This document shows positions 50,719 through 55,738 of a stretch of DNA of 64,000 nucleotides, in pieces. This DNA is from Dehalococcoidia bacterium (GTDB taxonomy: Bacteria > Chloroflexota > Dehalococcoidia > Lucifugimonadales > UBA1123). How positions within the stretch are numbered: the first letter of the stretch is position 1; every line of letters starts with the position of its first letter. The position numbers were made by a program, and so were the translations under genes. The DNA is taken from positions 1,494,498-1,558,497 of the forward strand of contig CBDFIE010000003.1 of assembly GCA_965248005.1 (NCBI GenBank), read 5' to 3'. Under the pieces are notes generated by a model that saw nothing but the letters and a program-made list of their open reading frames with translations, searched no databases and had not been told where the DNA came from.

Positions 50719-50777
50719 GGTCCCGTAGGGTTGCAGTAGCGTATCGGGAAGGGACGGCTTTTCGCAAACAGAGAACG

Positions 50778-51209
50778 CTACCGTTTAGCCAAGCGGCTCG
50801 GATCCCCGCCGGGATTCCGTAATCGCGTTATCAGCGCAACCATGCCAGCATTCAAATCGCATTCCCAGATCACGCAAACTTTCCAGTTCCTCTCTCTTAG
50901 TGCAGCAAAATTCACCACATCGCGTTTCACGTTACGTGCAATCTTGGCAATCCAGTAAGACCTATTTGACACGGGCAATCTGAAGCGTCTGCATTCATGC
51001 CCATGCCAGAAACAGCCATGAACGAACACAACCGTCGAATAGCGGGGCAATACGATATCAGGCCTACCGGGCAGATCTTTCCGATGAAGCCGGTACCGGA
51101 AGCCGGCGGAGTGCAGAGTTTTGCGGACGGCGAGTTCAATAGACGTGTCCTCCGAGTGTACGAGCGCCATGATCCGACTTCGTTCCTCAGGTGGAACTTT
51201 GTCAGCCAC
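50778..51209 (-). CDS. vsr: very short patch repair endonuclease
   Basis: RSRIMALVHSEDTSIELAVRK, PGRPDIVLP, VFVHGCFWHGHEC and YWIAKIARNVKRD motifs. Confidence 0.9.
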   Translation of the reverse strand: MADKVPPEERSRIMALVHSEDTSIELAVRKTLHSAGFRYRLHRKDLPGRPDIVLPRYSTVVFVHGCFWHGHECRRFRLPVSNRSYWIAKIARNVKRDVVNFAALRERNWKVCVIWECDLNAGMVALITRLRNPGGDPSRLAKR

Positions 51210-51211
51210 AC

Positions 51212-51865
51212 TTACCCCTCGTCGGACACTTCCTCCAACCGCTGCCTTGCAAGATGCTCCAACCTTCGCGCCTGAGTGAGGAGAGTTCTTCGCAACCCCG
51301 GCTGGACGGATCGCTCACTAATCACTTGAGCGAGTTTGGCGATGGTGCTAGCTCTCCGAGCAACACGAATGTCTGCGTGCTTTCGGCGCTCATATAATGA
51401 GTCTGGGACGATCCTCCCTCGTACAGGGGCAGGCAGTTCAATCTTCGGTGCGGGGGAAACCGGGACTTCGTTCAACACCGCACCAAATAGGGACGCTCCC
51501 AGGAGCATCTGGAAGACTGTATATTCAGCAGAGTCAAGTATATTCTTGATGTCAGCTCTCGGTCTTCCTGTTAGTTCCCAGAGTGGCCACATCTCTATGT
51601 CCGCGACTTCAAAAGGGTCAAGCACGTTCATGGCAACGGCGTCGGTTCTTCGGTTGCTGAGATGGCGTCGAATGCGAACCCTTAGTTTTTCGTGTGTCTG
51701 GCCTACGTAGATGGGCTCCCCATCATAATCATAAAAAGCGTAGACTCCGCGGGTGGCATCGCCTACGCGGTTGTCGGTGGCGTCACGCGCATTTAGGACG
51801 CGCTCCATTTCAGACAGTATCTCACGGACTTCATGGGGGGGCTCTTCGGAGCGTCTACGAGGCAT
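51212..51865 (-). CDS. GIY-YIG nuclease-domain protein, candidate restriction endonuclease
   Basis: GVYAFYDYDGEPIYVGQT...LRVRIRRH is a GIY-(10)-YVG-(n)-R core. The gene sits between the methyltransferase and vsr. The start at MPRRRSEE overlaps the methyltransferase stop by 11 nt. Confidence 0.65.
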   Translation of the reverse strand: MPRRRSEEPPHEVREILSEMERVLNARDATDNRVGDATRGVYAFYDYDGEPIYVGQTHEKLRVRIRRHLSNRRTDAVAMNVLDPFEVADIEMWPLWELTGRPRADIKNILDSAEYTVFQMLLGASLFGAVLNEVPVSPAPKIELPAPVRGRIVPDSLYERRKHADIRVARRASTIAKLAQVISERSVQPGLRRTLLTQARRLEHLARQRLEEVSDEG

Positions 51866-53012
51866 TTGAAAAAGCCATCTGGACAGGTCTCGGAACCAGT
51901 TTGCCTTGGACAAGGGGCACCAGGTAGTGCCGCGCCAGCCATCCAACGACTGGAACGCAGACGCCATCGCCCATTGCGAATCTCACCTGGCTCTCGCTCG
52001 CTCCGTCGAACTTAAAGTCTGGCGCTCCTTGTAACGTGGCATACTCGCGCGCGGTCATCCACCGTGCCTTGACGCTACCCTGACCAGCTTCCACCAGCGC
52101 CTGTTTGCTGGATCCCCCCCGTGCCGTACGCAAGCATCCACTGATCTCGTCAGCCCGGATTTCCCAGACAGCTGATCCATGGCGAGTTCGGCGGTATGCA
52201 GCCGCCCGATGTATCTGACCAGATGCTCGCAACGATTCGAGCCGCTTGCTCTGGATATCGGACAGTGACGCGAGGAAAGCGCCGAGTCGTCGAGCATCCC
52301 ACCACAATTCGCTAGTTGGAGGGATGGGTTCAGCAACCTCCGAAAGTGTCCTCGCGCTGTGGGGAAGTTTAGGCAAAGATGCGGCTTGCATCAACAACTC
52401 GGGATGTTTCTTGATGAAACGAATTACGTTGATGGAGCGATGTTGGCTAGGCGCGAAATTGGGAGTGCCTACGAAGCGTGAGAGCGACCCAATCACGAAA
52501 ACGCGTGATCGGCTCTGAGCGACGAAGTGCCGTGCGTCTAGCGTGAGTACATCGCAAGTGTATCCGAGCCCATTCAGAGCGGCGATCGTATCCCTCAGAT
52601 CCCTTCCGTGATTCGATGTGGCGAACCCGGAAACGTTTTCGAGCATAACGACTTGCGGCCTGTGCATCGCCATTTCGTCAAGTATGCTAATGAACTTCCA
52701 CAGAATACTCGAGTCCCTCCCGGCAAGGCCGTCGCGATGACCAGCGAGGGAAAGATTCGTACATGGGAACGACGCCGTAGCAATGTCGATTTCAGGCACG
52801 TGAAAAGCCCCGATATCTCGTATGTCGCAGCAGACGAACGGGGACGGGTCGAAGTTCGCGGCATATAAATCGCGCTTCTTCTTATCGATATCATTGGCGA
52901 AGACGACGCGGCACCCTTCCGATTCCAGCGCCATTCTCACGAGCCCTATCCCTGCGAAGAACTCTGCTACGCGGGGGCGACCATCGTATGCTCTCGTCAA
53001 CGGGCACCTCAT
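51855..53012 (-). CDS. DNA (cytosine-5)-methyltransferase
   Basis: C5-MTase motifs in order: I FFAGIGL, IV SFPCTNLS, VI LENV, VIII QSRSRVF, X GDGVCVPV. Confidence 0.93.
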   Translation of the reverse strand: MRCPLTRAYDGRPRVAEFFAGIGLVRMALESEGCRVVFANDIDKKKRDLYAANFDPSPFVCCDIRDIGAFHVPEIDIATASFPCTNLSLAGHRDGLAGRDSSILWKFISILDEMAMHRPQVVMLENVSGFATSNHGRDLRDTIAALNGLGYTCDVLTLDARHFVAQSRSRVFVIGSLSRFVGTPNFAPSQHRSINVIRFIKKHPELLMQAASLPKLPHSARTLSEVAEPIPPTSELWWDARRLGAFLASLSDIQSKRLESLRASGQIHRAAAYRRTRHGSAVWEIRADEISGCLRTARGGSSKQALVEAGQGSVKARWMTAREYATLQGAPDFKFDGASESQVRFAMGDGVCVPVVGWLARHYLVPLVQGKLVPRPVQMAFSNAS

Positions 53013-53258
53013 TGAGCAATATACCTGATGCTCAAATCCACCACATTAGAACATATATACCAAAGCGCCGGATGTCAACCGTTAAAATCGGCTGTTCGGA
53101 CTTGGACCGTTTCGGCGCGGATCACCACTATCCAGACAAACGGAAAGCGGTGCACGCTTAACCCTGCACACGTTAAGACACCCCGCTGGCGCGCCTCCGT
53201 CGGATGGCCACCCCGGCCAGCGGGTCTGCTACAATTCACCACCGGAGGTAGGGCAGCG

Positions 53259-53636
53259 ATGACGATGGACAGGTTTCAGCCGGGCCAGAGCGGCGAGCTG
53301 GAGACTATCGTGACCAGGCGGCTGACCACCAACCGCATGGGGCGGAAGGGCGCCGACGTGCTCTCCACCCCCTCGCTGCTGGGCCTGATGGAGAACGCCT
53401 GCATCAAGGCCTCCGACCCCTACATGCCCGAAGGACACACATCGGTGGGCTACGCGGTGGACGGCCTCCGCCACATCGCCCCCACGGCCATAGACCAGAC
53501 GGTCCTGGTCAAGTCCGTGCTCACGGAGGTCGACAGAAACCGCCTCACCTACGAGATCGAGGCCTACGAGGGCGACAAGAGGATCGGCACGGCGACCCAC
53601 AAGCGGGCCGTGATATCCACGGACGCCGACGCGTGA
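53259..53636 (+). CDS. hotdog-fold thioesterase (FlK-like family)
   Basis: VLSTPSLLGLMENA...GHTSVGYAVDGLRHIAPT...LTYEIEAYEG matches the thioester dehydrase/thioesterase family. GGAGG lies upstream of the Met at 53259. Confidence 0.7.
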   Translation: MTMDRFQPGQSGELETIVTRRLTTNRMGRKGADVLSTPSLLGLMENACIKASDPYMPEGHTSVGYAVDGLRHIAPTAIDQTVLVKSVLTEVDRNRLTYEIEAYEGDKRIGTATHKRAVISTDADA

Positions 53637-53675
53637 TGCCGCGCCGCCTATTCGGACCGGACGTGGGCCCTCCGC

Positions 53676-54941
53676 TTGCCTCACCTGGCGCACCGGGCAC
53701 CGAACCGCTCCCAACTGATCGGACCTGACCCAGTGGCGGGCGAGCCAACAGGGTTCCTGCACGGTCTGAAGGTCCTGGACCTGACCCACTACGTCGCCGG
53801 CCCCTACGCGACGCGGCTGATGGCCGGCCAGGGCGCGGAGGTCGTCAAGGTCGAGCGCGCCGACGGCGGCGACCCCGCGCGGCGCATCGGGCCTTTCGCC
53901 GGTGGTGCCCCCCACCGGGAAAAGAGCGCCCTTTTCCTCTACCTGAACACGGGGAAGAAGAGCGTCACCCTCAACCTCAAGACCTCGGCGGGCAGGTCGA
54001 TTGTCCACGACCTGGTCCGGTGGGCGGACGTTCTGGTTGAGAATTTCCAACCGCGGGTGCTGCCGTCGCTGGAGCTGGACTACGACCGGCTCTCGCGGAT
54101 CAACGAGAGTCTGGTCATGACATCGATCTCCAACTTCGGACAGACTGGGCCATACCGCGATTTTGAGGCAAGGGAGATCAACCTCTACGCCTTTGGCGGG
54201 CTGCAGTACATCACCGGCGAGCCGGACCGGGAGCCGTTGCAGATGGCTGCGCGGCTGGCCCAGTACGGTGCTGGACAGAACGCCTTCGTTGGGACGCTGG
54301 CGGCCCTCTGGCACCGCGATTCCACGGGTCAGGGCCAACACGTGGACGTGGCAATCTCCGAGTATCTGGCCACGATCCTGGAGAACGCCTTGAGCATGTA
54401 TTCCTATACTGGTAGCAGCTTCAGGCGAACCGGGAACCGGGGCTACGGCCGTGCGGCGTGGGGACCATACCCTTGTAAAGACGGTTTCGTGGGCGTGATC
54501 GCGGGACCCGACCACAAGTGGCCCGCCATGGCCGAGCTTATGGGCATCCCTGAGCTTGCCGAGGCCAGATTCGGCGACAGGGCCGGGCGGGCGGCCCACG
54601 CCGACGCGCTGGACGCGCTGATGCTGCCCTGGCTCATGCAGCACGGCAAGCGCGAGATCTTCGAGCGTGCCCAGGCCGTGGGTCTGGCCTTCGCCTACGC
54701 CGCCACTCCCGAGGACATACTTCATTGGGAGCATCTGGAGCAGCGGGGCTTCTTCGCCGAGGTCGATCACTCCGAAGCGGGGGCATTCAAGTATCCCACC
54801 GGCCCGTTCCAGACCGAGTCGATGGCCTGGGACCTCTCTCCGGCGCCCACTCTCGGTCAACACAACCGCCAGGTATTTCGCGATCTTCTGGGGTATACTG
54901 CGAGCGATCTGGTCCGCCTGCGCCAGACGGCGGTAATGTAA
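53676..54941 (+). CDS. family III CoA-transferase (CaiB/BaiF-like)
   Basis: LKVLDLTHYVAGPYATRLMAGQGAEVVKVE and ADVLVENFQP motifs. The start is uncertain; GTG at 53733 is possible. Confidence 0.88.
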   Translation: MPHLAHRAPNRSQLIGPDPVAGEPTGFLHGLKVLDLTHYVAGPYATRLMAGQGAEVVKVERADGGDPARRIGPFAGGAPHREKSALFLYLNTGKKSVTLNLKTSAGRSIVHDLVRWADVLVENFQPRVLPSLELDYDRLSRINESLVMTSISNFGQTGPYRDFEAREINLYAFGGLQYITGEPDREPLQMAARLAQYGAGQNAFVGTLAALWHRDSTGQGQHVDVAISEYLATILENALSMYSYTGSSFRRTGNRGYGRAAWGPYPCKDGFVGVIAGPDHKWPAMAELMGIPELAEARFGDRAGRAAHADALDALMLPWLMQHGKREIFERAQAVGLAFAYAATPEDILHWEHLEQRGFFAEVDHSEAGAFKYPTGPFQTESMAWDLSPAPTLGQHNRQVFRDLLGYTASDLVRLRQTAVM

Positions 54942-55045
54942 GCTACTGATAGCCGATTCCTGACAGCTGACTGCCTGCCCCGACGTCCCGATCCCGATGC
55001 GGGACCAAATCGGGGAGTCGGGGGCTGATAGCTGAGAGCTACGCA

Positions 55046-55738
55046 ATGCCGAACACCGTGCTGGTGGTAGAGGACGAAGAGAACCTTCTCACTGCCCTCA
55101 CCTACAACCTGGGACGTGAAGGCTACACGGTCCTGACTGCAACGGACGGGCAGGCGGCCCTTGCTCTCGCCCGCAGCCATTCGCCGGACCTGATCATCCT
55201 GGACGTGATGCTCCCCGAACTCGACGGCTTCGAGGTCTGTCGCATCCTGAGGAGGGAGTCGGAAGTCCCCATCATGATGCTGACGGCCAAGGGTGAGGAG
55301 ATCGACCGGGTTGTCGGGCTGGAGCTGGGTGCCGACGACTACGTGACCAAGCCCTTCAGCACCCGTGAGCTGATGGTCCGGGTCCGCAACATGCTGAGGC
55401 GGACGGCGACGGCCCCCGGCGTCACTCACGGCGACCACGACGTGCTCGCCGCCGGCGACCTTGTGATTGACCTGGCCAGCCACACCGTCAGGCGCGAAGG
55501 CGAGCCGATGTCCTTGCGGCCCCGGGAGTTCGAGCTGCTGTCGCTGCTGGTGTCGAACATGGGCAGGGCCCTCTCACGAAACCAGATACTCGACGGTCTG
55601 TGGGGTCACGACTATATAGGCGATACCCGGACCGTTGACGTCCACGTGCGGTGGCTGCGAGAGAAGATTGAGCCCGACCCCGCAAATCCTCGTCGCATAG
55701 TGACCGTTCGCAGTGTCGGCTATAGGTTCGACGGGTGA
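55046..55738 (+). CDS. OmpR/PhoB-type response regulator
   Basis: Receiver domain (VLVVEDE, DLIILDVMLP, LTAKG) plus a winged-helix domain (RTVDVHVRWLREKIE). It lies directly upstream of a kinase gene and the pst operon. Confidence 0.9.
   Translation: MPNTVLVVEDEENLLTALTYNLGREGYTVLTATDGQAALALARSHSPDLIILDVMLPELDGFEVCRILRRESEVPIMMLTAKGEEIDRVVGLELGADDYVTKPFSTRELMVRVRNMLRRTATAPGVTHGDHDVLAAGDLVIDLASHTVRREGEPMSLRPREFELLSLLVSNMGRALSRNQILDGLWGHDYIGDTRTVDVHVRWLREKIEPDPANPRRIVTVRSVGYRFDG

Follow-up and report, generated by a model that had tools for sequence, protein, structure and literature searches.

A putative Type II restriction-modification cassette with a GIY-YIG nuclease between a C5-methyltransferase and Vsr in a Dehalococcoidia genome

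A 64,000-nucleotide (nt) stretch of the genome of a Dehalococcoidia bacterium (contig CBDFIE010000003.1 of assembly GCA_965248005.1, positions 1,494,498 to 1,558,497; hereafter the window) carries three tightly coupled minus-strand genes of one orientation within positions 50778-53012. They encode a cytosine-5 (C5) methyltransferase, a GIY-YIG nuclease and the very-short-patch-repair endonuclease Vsr, and these three identities, proposed in an initial annotation of the window, are borne out by family matches (Table 1). Judged from sequence and genomic context, the cassette is probably a Type II restriction-modification system, with the GIY-YIG protein as its uncharacterised restriction enzyme. 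We favour this reading because the methylase adjoins the nuclease at every related locus that we surveyed and because the nuclease fills a slot that elsewhere holds Type II enzymes recognised by PADLOC. It draws further on partner swapping along the methylase tree, an intact active site, translational coupling and mobility.

Relatives of the nuclease are numerous. At E ≤ 0.001, 6,440 of them are found among clusters at 90% identity, and the top 120 match over their full length at 64-77% identity. A scan of species genomes in the Genome Taxonomy Database (GTDB) confirmed at least 439 of 599 pattern-matched stretches as nuclease homologues, and the best 80 of these confirmed loci, to which all locus counts below refer, come from Chloroflexota, Acidobacteriota, Verrucomicrobiota, Nitrospirota, Planctomycetota, Pseudomonadota and Actinomycetota, among others. 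A homologue of the window methylase adjoins the nuclease on the same strand at all 80 loci (79 upstream, 1 downstream; gaps of -10 to +105 nt). Vsr belongs to the cassette at 55 of the 80, in the order methylase-nuclease-Vsr at 38, Vsr-methylase-nuclease at 16 and nuclease-methylase-Vsr at a single locus; at 25 loci no Vsr lies within 5 kb. Each of the 10 full-length plasmid copies of the nuclease has such a methylase no more than 1.5 kb away, in some cases in divergent orientation. Among 41 relatives, the methylase family (E ≤ 1e-40) is confined to the five genomes that carry the nuclease and one that carries DUF4928 instead.

The slot occupied by the GIY-YIG nuclease accepts other proteins. 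On plasmids and in a relative of the same order, methylases of this family are followed, in the same downstream overlapping position, by DUF4928 (309-330 amino acids, aa) or by a 285-aa protein, here called X, which carries a D..(E/D)LK motif. DUF4928 matches the full-length PADLOC REase_II model PDLC03543 at 545 bits, and X likewise the full-length REase_II model PDLC03501 at 422 bits. The methylases paired with them have the same target-recognition block as the window methylase. The same-order relative (G035; locus L133, G035:C1:213470-214561 and flanks) reproduces the order and spacing of the window with a small open reading frame (ORF), methylase, DUF4928 and Vsr, joined at junctions of 4 nt and 9 nt; its upstream ORF, of 83 aa, has no Pfam match. 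In a maximum-likelihood tree of the methylases the partner type switches at least three times, and in one case a methylase paired with DUF4928 and one paired with a GIY-YIG protein are sisters (support 96/95). That unrelated nucleases replace one another beside a single methylase family is a classic Type II pattern, and three unrelated nucleases make this family a clean natural case of partner swapping. These cassettes resemble that of the window in methylase family, recognition block and nuclease slot, often in Vsr, and on plasmids in a ribbon-helix-helix-like small ORF, whereas their slot nuclease is unrelated to the GIY-YIG protein and is already catalogued as a putative Type II enzyme. We found no similarity of X or DUF4928 to solved restriction enzymes, and in the literature DUF4928 turned up in one paper, as an annotation only.

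The 217-aa protein is, by its sequence, a true GIY-YIG nuclease. It matches PF01541 at 27.3 bits (cut-off 22.6) over residues 40-94 only, the match ending at profile position 56 of 78, and its core spans about residues 38-135. The signature reads GVY42...IY53VG55...R64..H68 with the canonical GIY-to-YIG spacing of 11 residues, and Y42, Y53, G55, R64, H68, E114 and N132 are invariant in an alignment of 29 homologous sequences. Local hhalign against the N-terminal domains of UvrC from the host genome and its relatives (E = 2.6e-5) places Y42, Y53/G55, R64 and E114 on the GIY tyrosine, YVG, conserved arginine and glutamate of UvrC, which we take to be Y19, Y29, R39 and E76 of the T. maritima protein; H68 falls on what is presumably T. 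maritima Y43. The conserved asparagine of UvrC aligns four residues before invariant N132, in a low-confidence stretch. Catalytic GIY-YIG residues are present in the profile alignment, and since the predicted active site is canonical, the new mechanism that the initial annotation had entertained is not indicated.

An AlphaFold2 (AF2) model built from the 29-sequence alignment (mean predicted local distance difference test score, pLDDT, 84.8; predicted template modelling score, pTM, 0.81) has strands at residues 40-45, 51-57 and 89-94 and helices at 61-70 and 103-124, which together form the three-stranded GIY-YIG fold. Searched against the PDB with Foldseek, the model finds the GIY-YIG domain of UvrC as its best match, with probabilities of 0.94-0.99 and template modelling (TM) scores on the target of 0.54-0.65. 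Conservation in the family is highest in a family-specific invariant loop, N71-V87 (NxRTDAVAMNVLDPFEV). The model is confident except at residues 72-81, which fall inside this motif, and the loop may become ordered only on DNA, in keeping with the low confidence there. The C-terminal part (about residues 148-215) is basic and helical, and it has no match in Pfam, NCBIfam, PADLOC, PHROGs or the PDB sequence and fold searches, in agreement with the earlier remark that the C-terminal half has no recognisable motif.

The genes are packed as tightly as first described. The nuclease ATG at 51865 overlaps the methylase TAG (51857-51855) by 11 nt, and vsr begins with a GTG 2 nt past the nuclease TAA, with GAGGGG just ahead of it. 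The longest ORF for the nuclease is 251 aa from 51967, reaching 113 nt into the methylase gene; the 217-aa start agrees with the N-termini of 28 homologues. The nuclease protein recorded for the host genome (P0001) has 198 aa (51212-51805) and starts 19 codons past the 217-aa start. Upstream of the methylase, the sequence TTGACA-17-TATGTT is a possible operon promoter, a match that is not significant alone (1 site found against 1.1 expected).

Table 1. Coordinates of the cassette genes and associated features in the window.
Feature	Coordinates	Strand	Size or position	Basis
C5-methyltransferase	53012..51855	minus	385 aa	PF00145, TIGR00675, PADLOC MTase_II PDLC03243
GIY-YIG nuclease, candidate restriction endonuclease	51865..51212	minus	217 aa	PF01541, hhalign, AF2, Foldseek
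Vsr very-short-patch-repair endonuclease	51209..50778	minus	143 aa	PF03852, TIGR00632, PADLOC Vsr
Promoter-like site TTGACA, 17 nt, TATGTT	53050..53078	minus	38 nt upstream of methylase ATG	Consensus scan
Low-GC patch	50719..53258	no strand	TPR gene start to likely FlK thioesterase gene start	100-nt and 400-nt composition

In the mechanism that we propose, methylase, nuclease and Vsr would be transcribed as one operon. The methylase would place 5-methylcytosine on a short site shared across its family, and the GIY-YIG protein, as the cognate endonuclease, would cut the same site when unmethylated, using a predicted canonical one-metal GIY-YIG centre of Y42, Y53, R64, H68, E114 and N132. Reading of the site would probably fall to the N71-V87 loop and the basic C-terminal helices, probably within a homodimer. 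Vsr would nick the T:G mismatches that arise from deamination of 5-methylcytosine, which would lower the mutagenic cost of the methylase. The analysis shows what the genes are, that their catalytic motifs are intact, that they are coupled in an operon, that the nuclease is strictly linked to the methylase and that it shares its slot with recognised restriction enzymes; cleavage, methyl sensitivity, dimerisation, site and defence function are inferred.

Several observations weigh against a restriction enzyme. Members of the nuclease family are known from sequence and context alone, PADLOC has no REase model for them, and their nearest fold is that of a repair nuclease, UvrC, not of a restriction enzyme. 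The nuclease also exceeds the methylase in conservation (median pairwise identity 57.5% versus 41%), an uncommon state of affairs in restriction-modification pairs. Its identities hardly follow the deep methylase clades, being 56-59% between and 59-63% within them, compared with 34-41% and 50-64% for the methylase. This asymmetry suggests either that the nuclease is unusually tightly constrained or that it has passed from one methylase lineage to another. It can also share a cassette with another nuclease, following methylase and X on some plasmids; at one of the 80 loci (L042) it is apparently intact beside a destroyed methylase; and a comparison of four carrier genomes with three non-carriers reveals no palindrome of 4, 5 or 6 bp that is consistently lower in the carriers.

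The kinship with UvrC opens the alternative that the GIY-YIG protein works in repair or as a nicking enzyme linked to the methylase, making for instance a UvrC-like second incision with Vsr at T:G mismatches, beside an orphan methylase. We consider this unlikely. The nearest sequence and fold relatives are indeed UvrC and Cho-type GIY-YIG domains, UvrC (the 3′ incision enzyme of nucleotide excision repair) giving the best match by structure and by profile, in which the catalytic Tyr, Tyr, Arg and Glu line up, and conservation above that of the methylase would suit a universal substrate. The window nuclease differs from UvrC, however, in being a stand-alone, methylase-linked protein without the UvrB-binding, EndoV-like and helix-hairpin-helix (HhH) domains, and the host genome has a separate full-length uvrC elsewhere. 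The frequency of Vsr in the cassettes speaks for a joint role, as does its presence elsewhere in five of the five tested genomes that have no local copy; those distant copies may serve other C5-methylases, however, and the 25 loci without Vsr within 5 kb all keep the methylase. The nuclease, moreover, sits exactly in the slot of recognised restriction enzymes between methylase and Vsr, and there is no obvious reason why an orphan methylase with a repair module should be so mobile.

Composite plasmids bear on the same alternative. On three Methylocystis plasmids (pGW6_1: L009 1747-4681) a ribbon-helix-helix-like small ORF is followed by methylase, X and the GIY-YIG nuclease, the latter two overlapping, so that the nuclease coexists with a separate restriction enzyme, as a repair function would allow. 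Related composites are partly broken: in Sphingomonas naphthae (L094) X is split by IS256 and the GIY-YIG gene is intact, on Rhizobium pRL11 (L096) X is intact and the GIY-YIG gene is reduced to a remnant, and in Kozakia (L095) X is frameshifted, beside a GIY-YIG protein that shares only the N-terminal domain with the window nuclease family. Vsr lies nearby in the alphaproteobacterial composites. Because each of two such pairs has one decayed and one intact nuclease (Sphingomonas, Rhizobium), redundancy explains X and GIY-YIG better than cooperation, and the composites fit two redundant nucleases sharing one methylase. A further reading, which we regard as doubtful, arises because the nuclease is better conserved than the methylase and nearly independent of its phylogeny, has a UvrC-like core and occurs on the methylase-X-GIY plasmids. 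It holds the nuclease to be, instead of an orthodox restriction enzyme, a modular methylase-docking enzyme that moves among lineages of one C5-methylase family and is able to sit beside a resident restriction enzyme. Its action could then be keyed to the methylase site or to its deamination products, either as a second incision next to Vsr (dual-incision very-short-patch repair) or as nicking of unmethylated or hemimethylated sites.

The locus with a destroyed methylase (L042:202-1950, in the Planctomycetota metagenome-assembled genome (MAG) JACQVU010000158) has methylase residues about 54-131 (motifs IV-VI) replaced by about 870 nt. The insert contains an ORF of roughly 250 aa with a PD-(D/E)XK-like 'D..EIKG' motif and stop codons at both ends, and may be a mobile nuclease gene that landed in the methylase gene. 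An intact GIY-YIG nuclease beside a broken methylase is what might be seen if the gene were a selfish, free-standing homing-type endonuclease targeting this methylase family and spreading together with its genes, methylation then not being self-protection. With about 220 aa, an N-terminal GIY-YIG domain and a putative C-terminal DNA-binding region, the protein would be built like the T4 Seg endonucleases; a viral fold library yields weak matches (E ≥ 1e-3) to generic GIY-YIG endonucleases of similar length, and a near-uniform nuclease stands beside divergent lineages of one gene family. Its position and orientation also vary on plasmids, being divergent in Polaromonas and Sphingomonas and after X in Methylocystis; the paper on Polaromonas pW5NP1 does not discuss the methylase or nuclease of that plasmid. 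Against this, 79 of the 80 loci keep one tight, co-oriented and often overlapping methylase-to-nuclease order, typical of a co-selected operon, the nuclease has no match in PHROGs, and its family is not phage-typical. Homing depends on filled and empty alleles often residing together, which is unlikely across many free-living phyla, and protective methylation explains the exclusive linkage to a methylase family with one recognition block more simply. A homing endonuclease is a distinctly improbable explanation, and a restriction enzyme protected by its neighbouring methylase remains the one that we prefer.

Reviews recognise two families of GIY-YIG restriction enzymes, the Eco29kI type and the Hpy188I type (PMC2441816, PMC4081073). 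The literature that we found covers only these two and does not describe the family of the window nuclease. Searches of all PDB chains, which include Eco29kI (3mx4, 3nic) and Hpy188I, with phmmer and with the 29-sequence profile returned nothing at E ≤ 10, and by sequence the protein is outside both characterised families. It shares with Eco29kI and Cfr42I (CCGC/GG) the orthodox Type II logic of a small single-chain GIY-YIG nuclease beside a DNA methylase, and the same predicted one-metal catalytic set (Tyr, Tyr, Arg, His, Glu, Asn). It differs from them in having no detectable sequence similarity, and in its canonical GIY-YIG spacing, N71-V87 insertion, unique helical C-terminus and cassette Vsr. 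Foldseek alignments to 3nic and 3mx4 have probabilities of 0.1-0.38, TM-scores of about 0.15-0.30 and root-mean-square deviations (RMSD) of about 14-16 Å. The label 'Eco29kI-like' given at first is accordingly not sustained. Hpy188I (TCN/GA) likewise belongs to the GIY-YIG superfamily in a Type IIP context, yet it appears neither in the PDB sequence searches nor in the Foldseek list, and its active site has been called unusual (PMC2630997), in contrast to the canonical residues kept by the family of the window nuclease.

A narrower version of the Eco29kI comparison would make the nuclease an isoschizomer of Eco29kI, Cfr42I and SacII that reads CCGCGG. Superfamily, length (217 aa against about 210 residues in the Eco29kI PDB chains) and a C5-methylase partner would agree with it, and Eco29kI chains do occur among the Foldseek matches. 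These matches reach only a probability of 0.38, with a TM-score of about 0.29 and an RMSD of about 15 Å, however, and the null PDB searches, a Pfam match to the generic PF01541 only and the 11-residue spacing all argue against it, making this the least credible of the alternatives and a very improbable one. CCGCGG is, in addition, not depleted in the host (observed/expected ratio, O/E, 0.86) and occurs once inside the cassette, both of which are weak evidence. Deinococcus radiodurans reportedly has a CCGCGG system of the N4-methylcytosine (m4C) kind.

The methylase is complete. It matches PF00145 (2e-47) and TIGR00675 (151 bits), both above the cut-offs, and PADLOC MTase_II PDLC03243 (390 bits), and its motifs I (FAGIGL), IV (SFPCTNLS), VI (ENV), VIII (QSRSR), IX (REYATLQG) and X (GDGVCVPV) form a full catalytic set. 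The target-recognition block, YRRTR..WEIRADEISGCLRTARGGSSKQ, lies at about residues 271-304. Methylases of the related loci fall into four clusters with identities down to 29%, and the block, written as Y[KR]RTR..E[IV]R.D..[SA]GCLRT..GGSS[RK]Q, is kept in all four and in the plasmid homologues. Because it is common to all clusters, the block suggests that the whole methylase family shares one specificity. The HhaI, HaeIII and Dcm-like methylases in the PDB match only the N-terminal half of the window methylase, which hints, weakly, that its site is not GCGC, GGCC or CCWGG. Two long 'methylase' ORFs in related loci, of 594 and 655 aa, were considered as methylase-nuclease fusions and rejected as spurious open frames in high-GC DNA. 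At a locus in a long-read Dehalococcoidia MAG (L067:3858-4927) the methylase is read in two frames that switch around residues 175-196, beside an intact nuclease and Vsr, and may be a genuine pseudogene or an artefact of assembly.

Vsr is equally well defined. It matches PF03852 at 1e-32 over profile positions 1-74 of 74, TIGR00632 at 146 bits (cut-off 97.85) and the PADLOC Vsr model at 105 bits, and its catalytic and zinc motif is found (FVHGCFWHGHEC; ..VHGCFWHGHEC..). As with Dcm and Vsr of E. coli, a C5-methylase is coupled to a nickase that repairs T:G mismatches from 5-methylcytosine deamination; the window differs in its target-recognition domain and in the nuclease gene between methylase and Vsr.

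Should the nuclease prove to be a restriction enzyme, it would found a third GIY-YIG family of such enzymes, and a large one, given its 6,440 clusters at 90% identity and at least 439 GTDB matches in many phyla. It would also offer a compact 217-aa scaffold for understanding how a non-specific GIY-YIG core gains specificity for a short site, and maybe a useful enzyme. Because the nuclease family is generically annotated (its NCBI label is only 'GIY-YIG nuclease family protein') and is missed by the PADLOC restriction models, censuses of defence systems probably score such cassettes as orphan methylases. If the nuclease instead acts in repair, the picture of how cells handle 5-methylcytosine damage changes.

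The cassette stands out in base composition, as the initial annotation had estimated from spot counts. Its GC content is 0.557 against a genome mean of 0.619 (standard deviation 0.029 over equal-sized windows; z = -2.16), a level reached by 3.9% of genome windows. Third codon positions differ much more sharply, their GC content (GC3) being 0.62, 0.56 and 0.58 in the three cassette genes and 0.81-0.93 in four flanking genes. The flanks are metabolic, encoding an enolase-superfamily protein, a TPR protein, an FlK thioesterase and a CaiB-type CoA-transferase. The FlK-CaiB pair is kept in relatives of the same family, where no cassette lies upstream of FlK, and two family members that do have the cassette (G002 and G007) carry it on other contigs. 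The nuclease is present in 5 of the 41 relatives, and identity across phyla in this patchy spread is 57-77%. Low GC and GC3, the empty syntenic site and the patchy spread across phyla argue for horizontal acquisition, as first proposed. The flanks contain no integrase or transposase, no neighbouring defence genes, no terminators above chance and only short direct repeats of the kind that chance predicts. Of the earlier term 'restriction-modification island', the first part thus stands as the best fit, in view of the methylase linkage and the nuclease slot, and 'island' is overstated: the cassette is best described as a lone imported insertion between metabolic genes, not a defence island. A 605-aa open frame at 53229-55046 on the minus strand runs antisense to the FlK and CaiB genes, with several similar ones nearby; such long antisense ORFs are spurious frames expected in 64% GC DNA, not genes, and several 'methylase' ORFs at related loci were lengthened in the same way.

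Palindrome avoidance was also considered as a guide to the recognition site. The host is low in the 6-bp palindromes CAGCTG (O/E 0.38), AGATCT, AAGCTT, GAGCTC, AGGCCT, CTCGAG and CGATCG, a similar set is low in the combined flanks of the 80 carrier loci, and three related genomes without the cassette have the same depletions. The best contrast, for GAGCTC, is 0.61-0.78 in carriers versus 0.76-0.86 in non-carriers. A site derived in this way was rejected, as the depletions are clade-wide and no word separates carriers from non-carriers. Across the clade (the host, G000, and relatives G003, G011, G028, G030, G035 and G036), CAGCTG (O/E 0.13-0.57), AAGCTT (0.19-0.63), AGGCCT, GGGCCC and CTCGAG are strongly under-represented, in carriers and non-carriers of the cassette alike. 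In G028, CCWGG (0.57) and GCCGGC (0.58) are low as well, perhaps a sign of other restriction systems in that genome.

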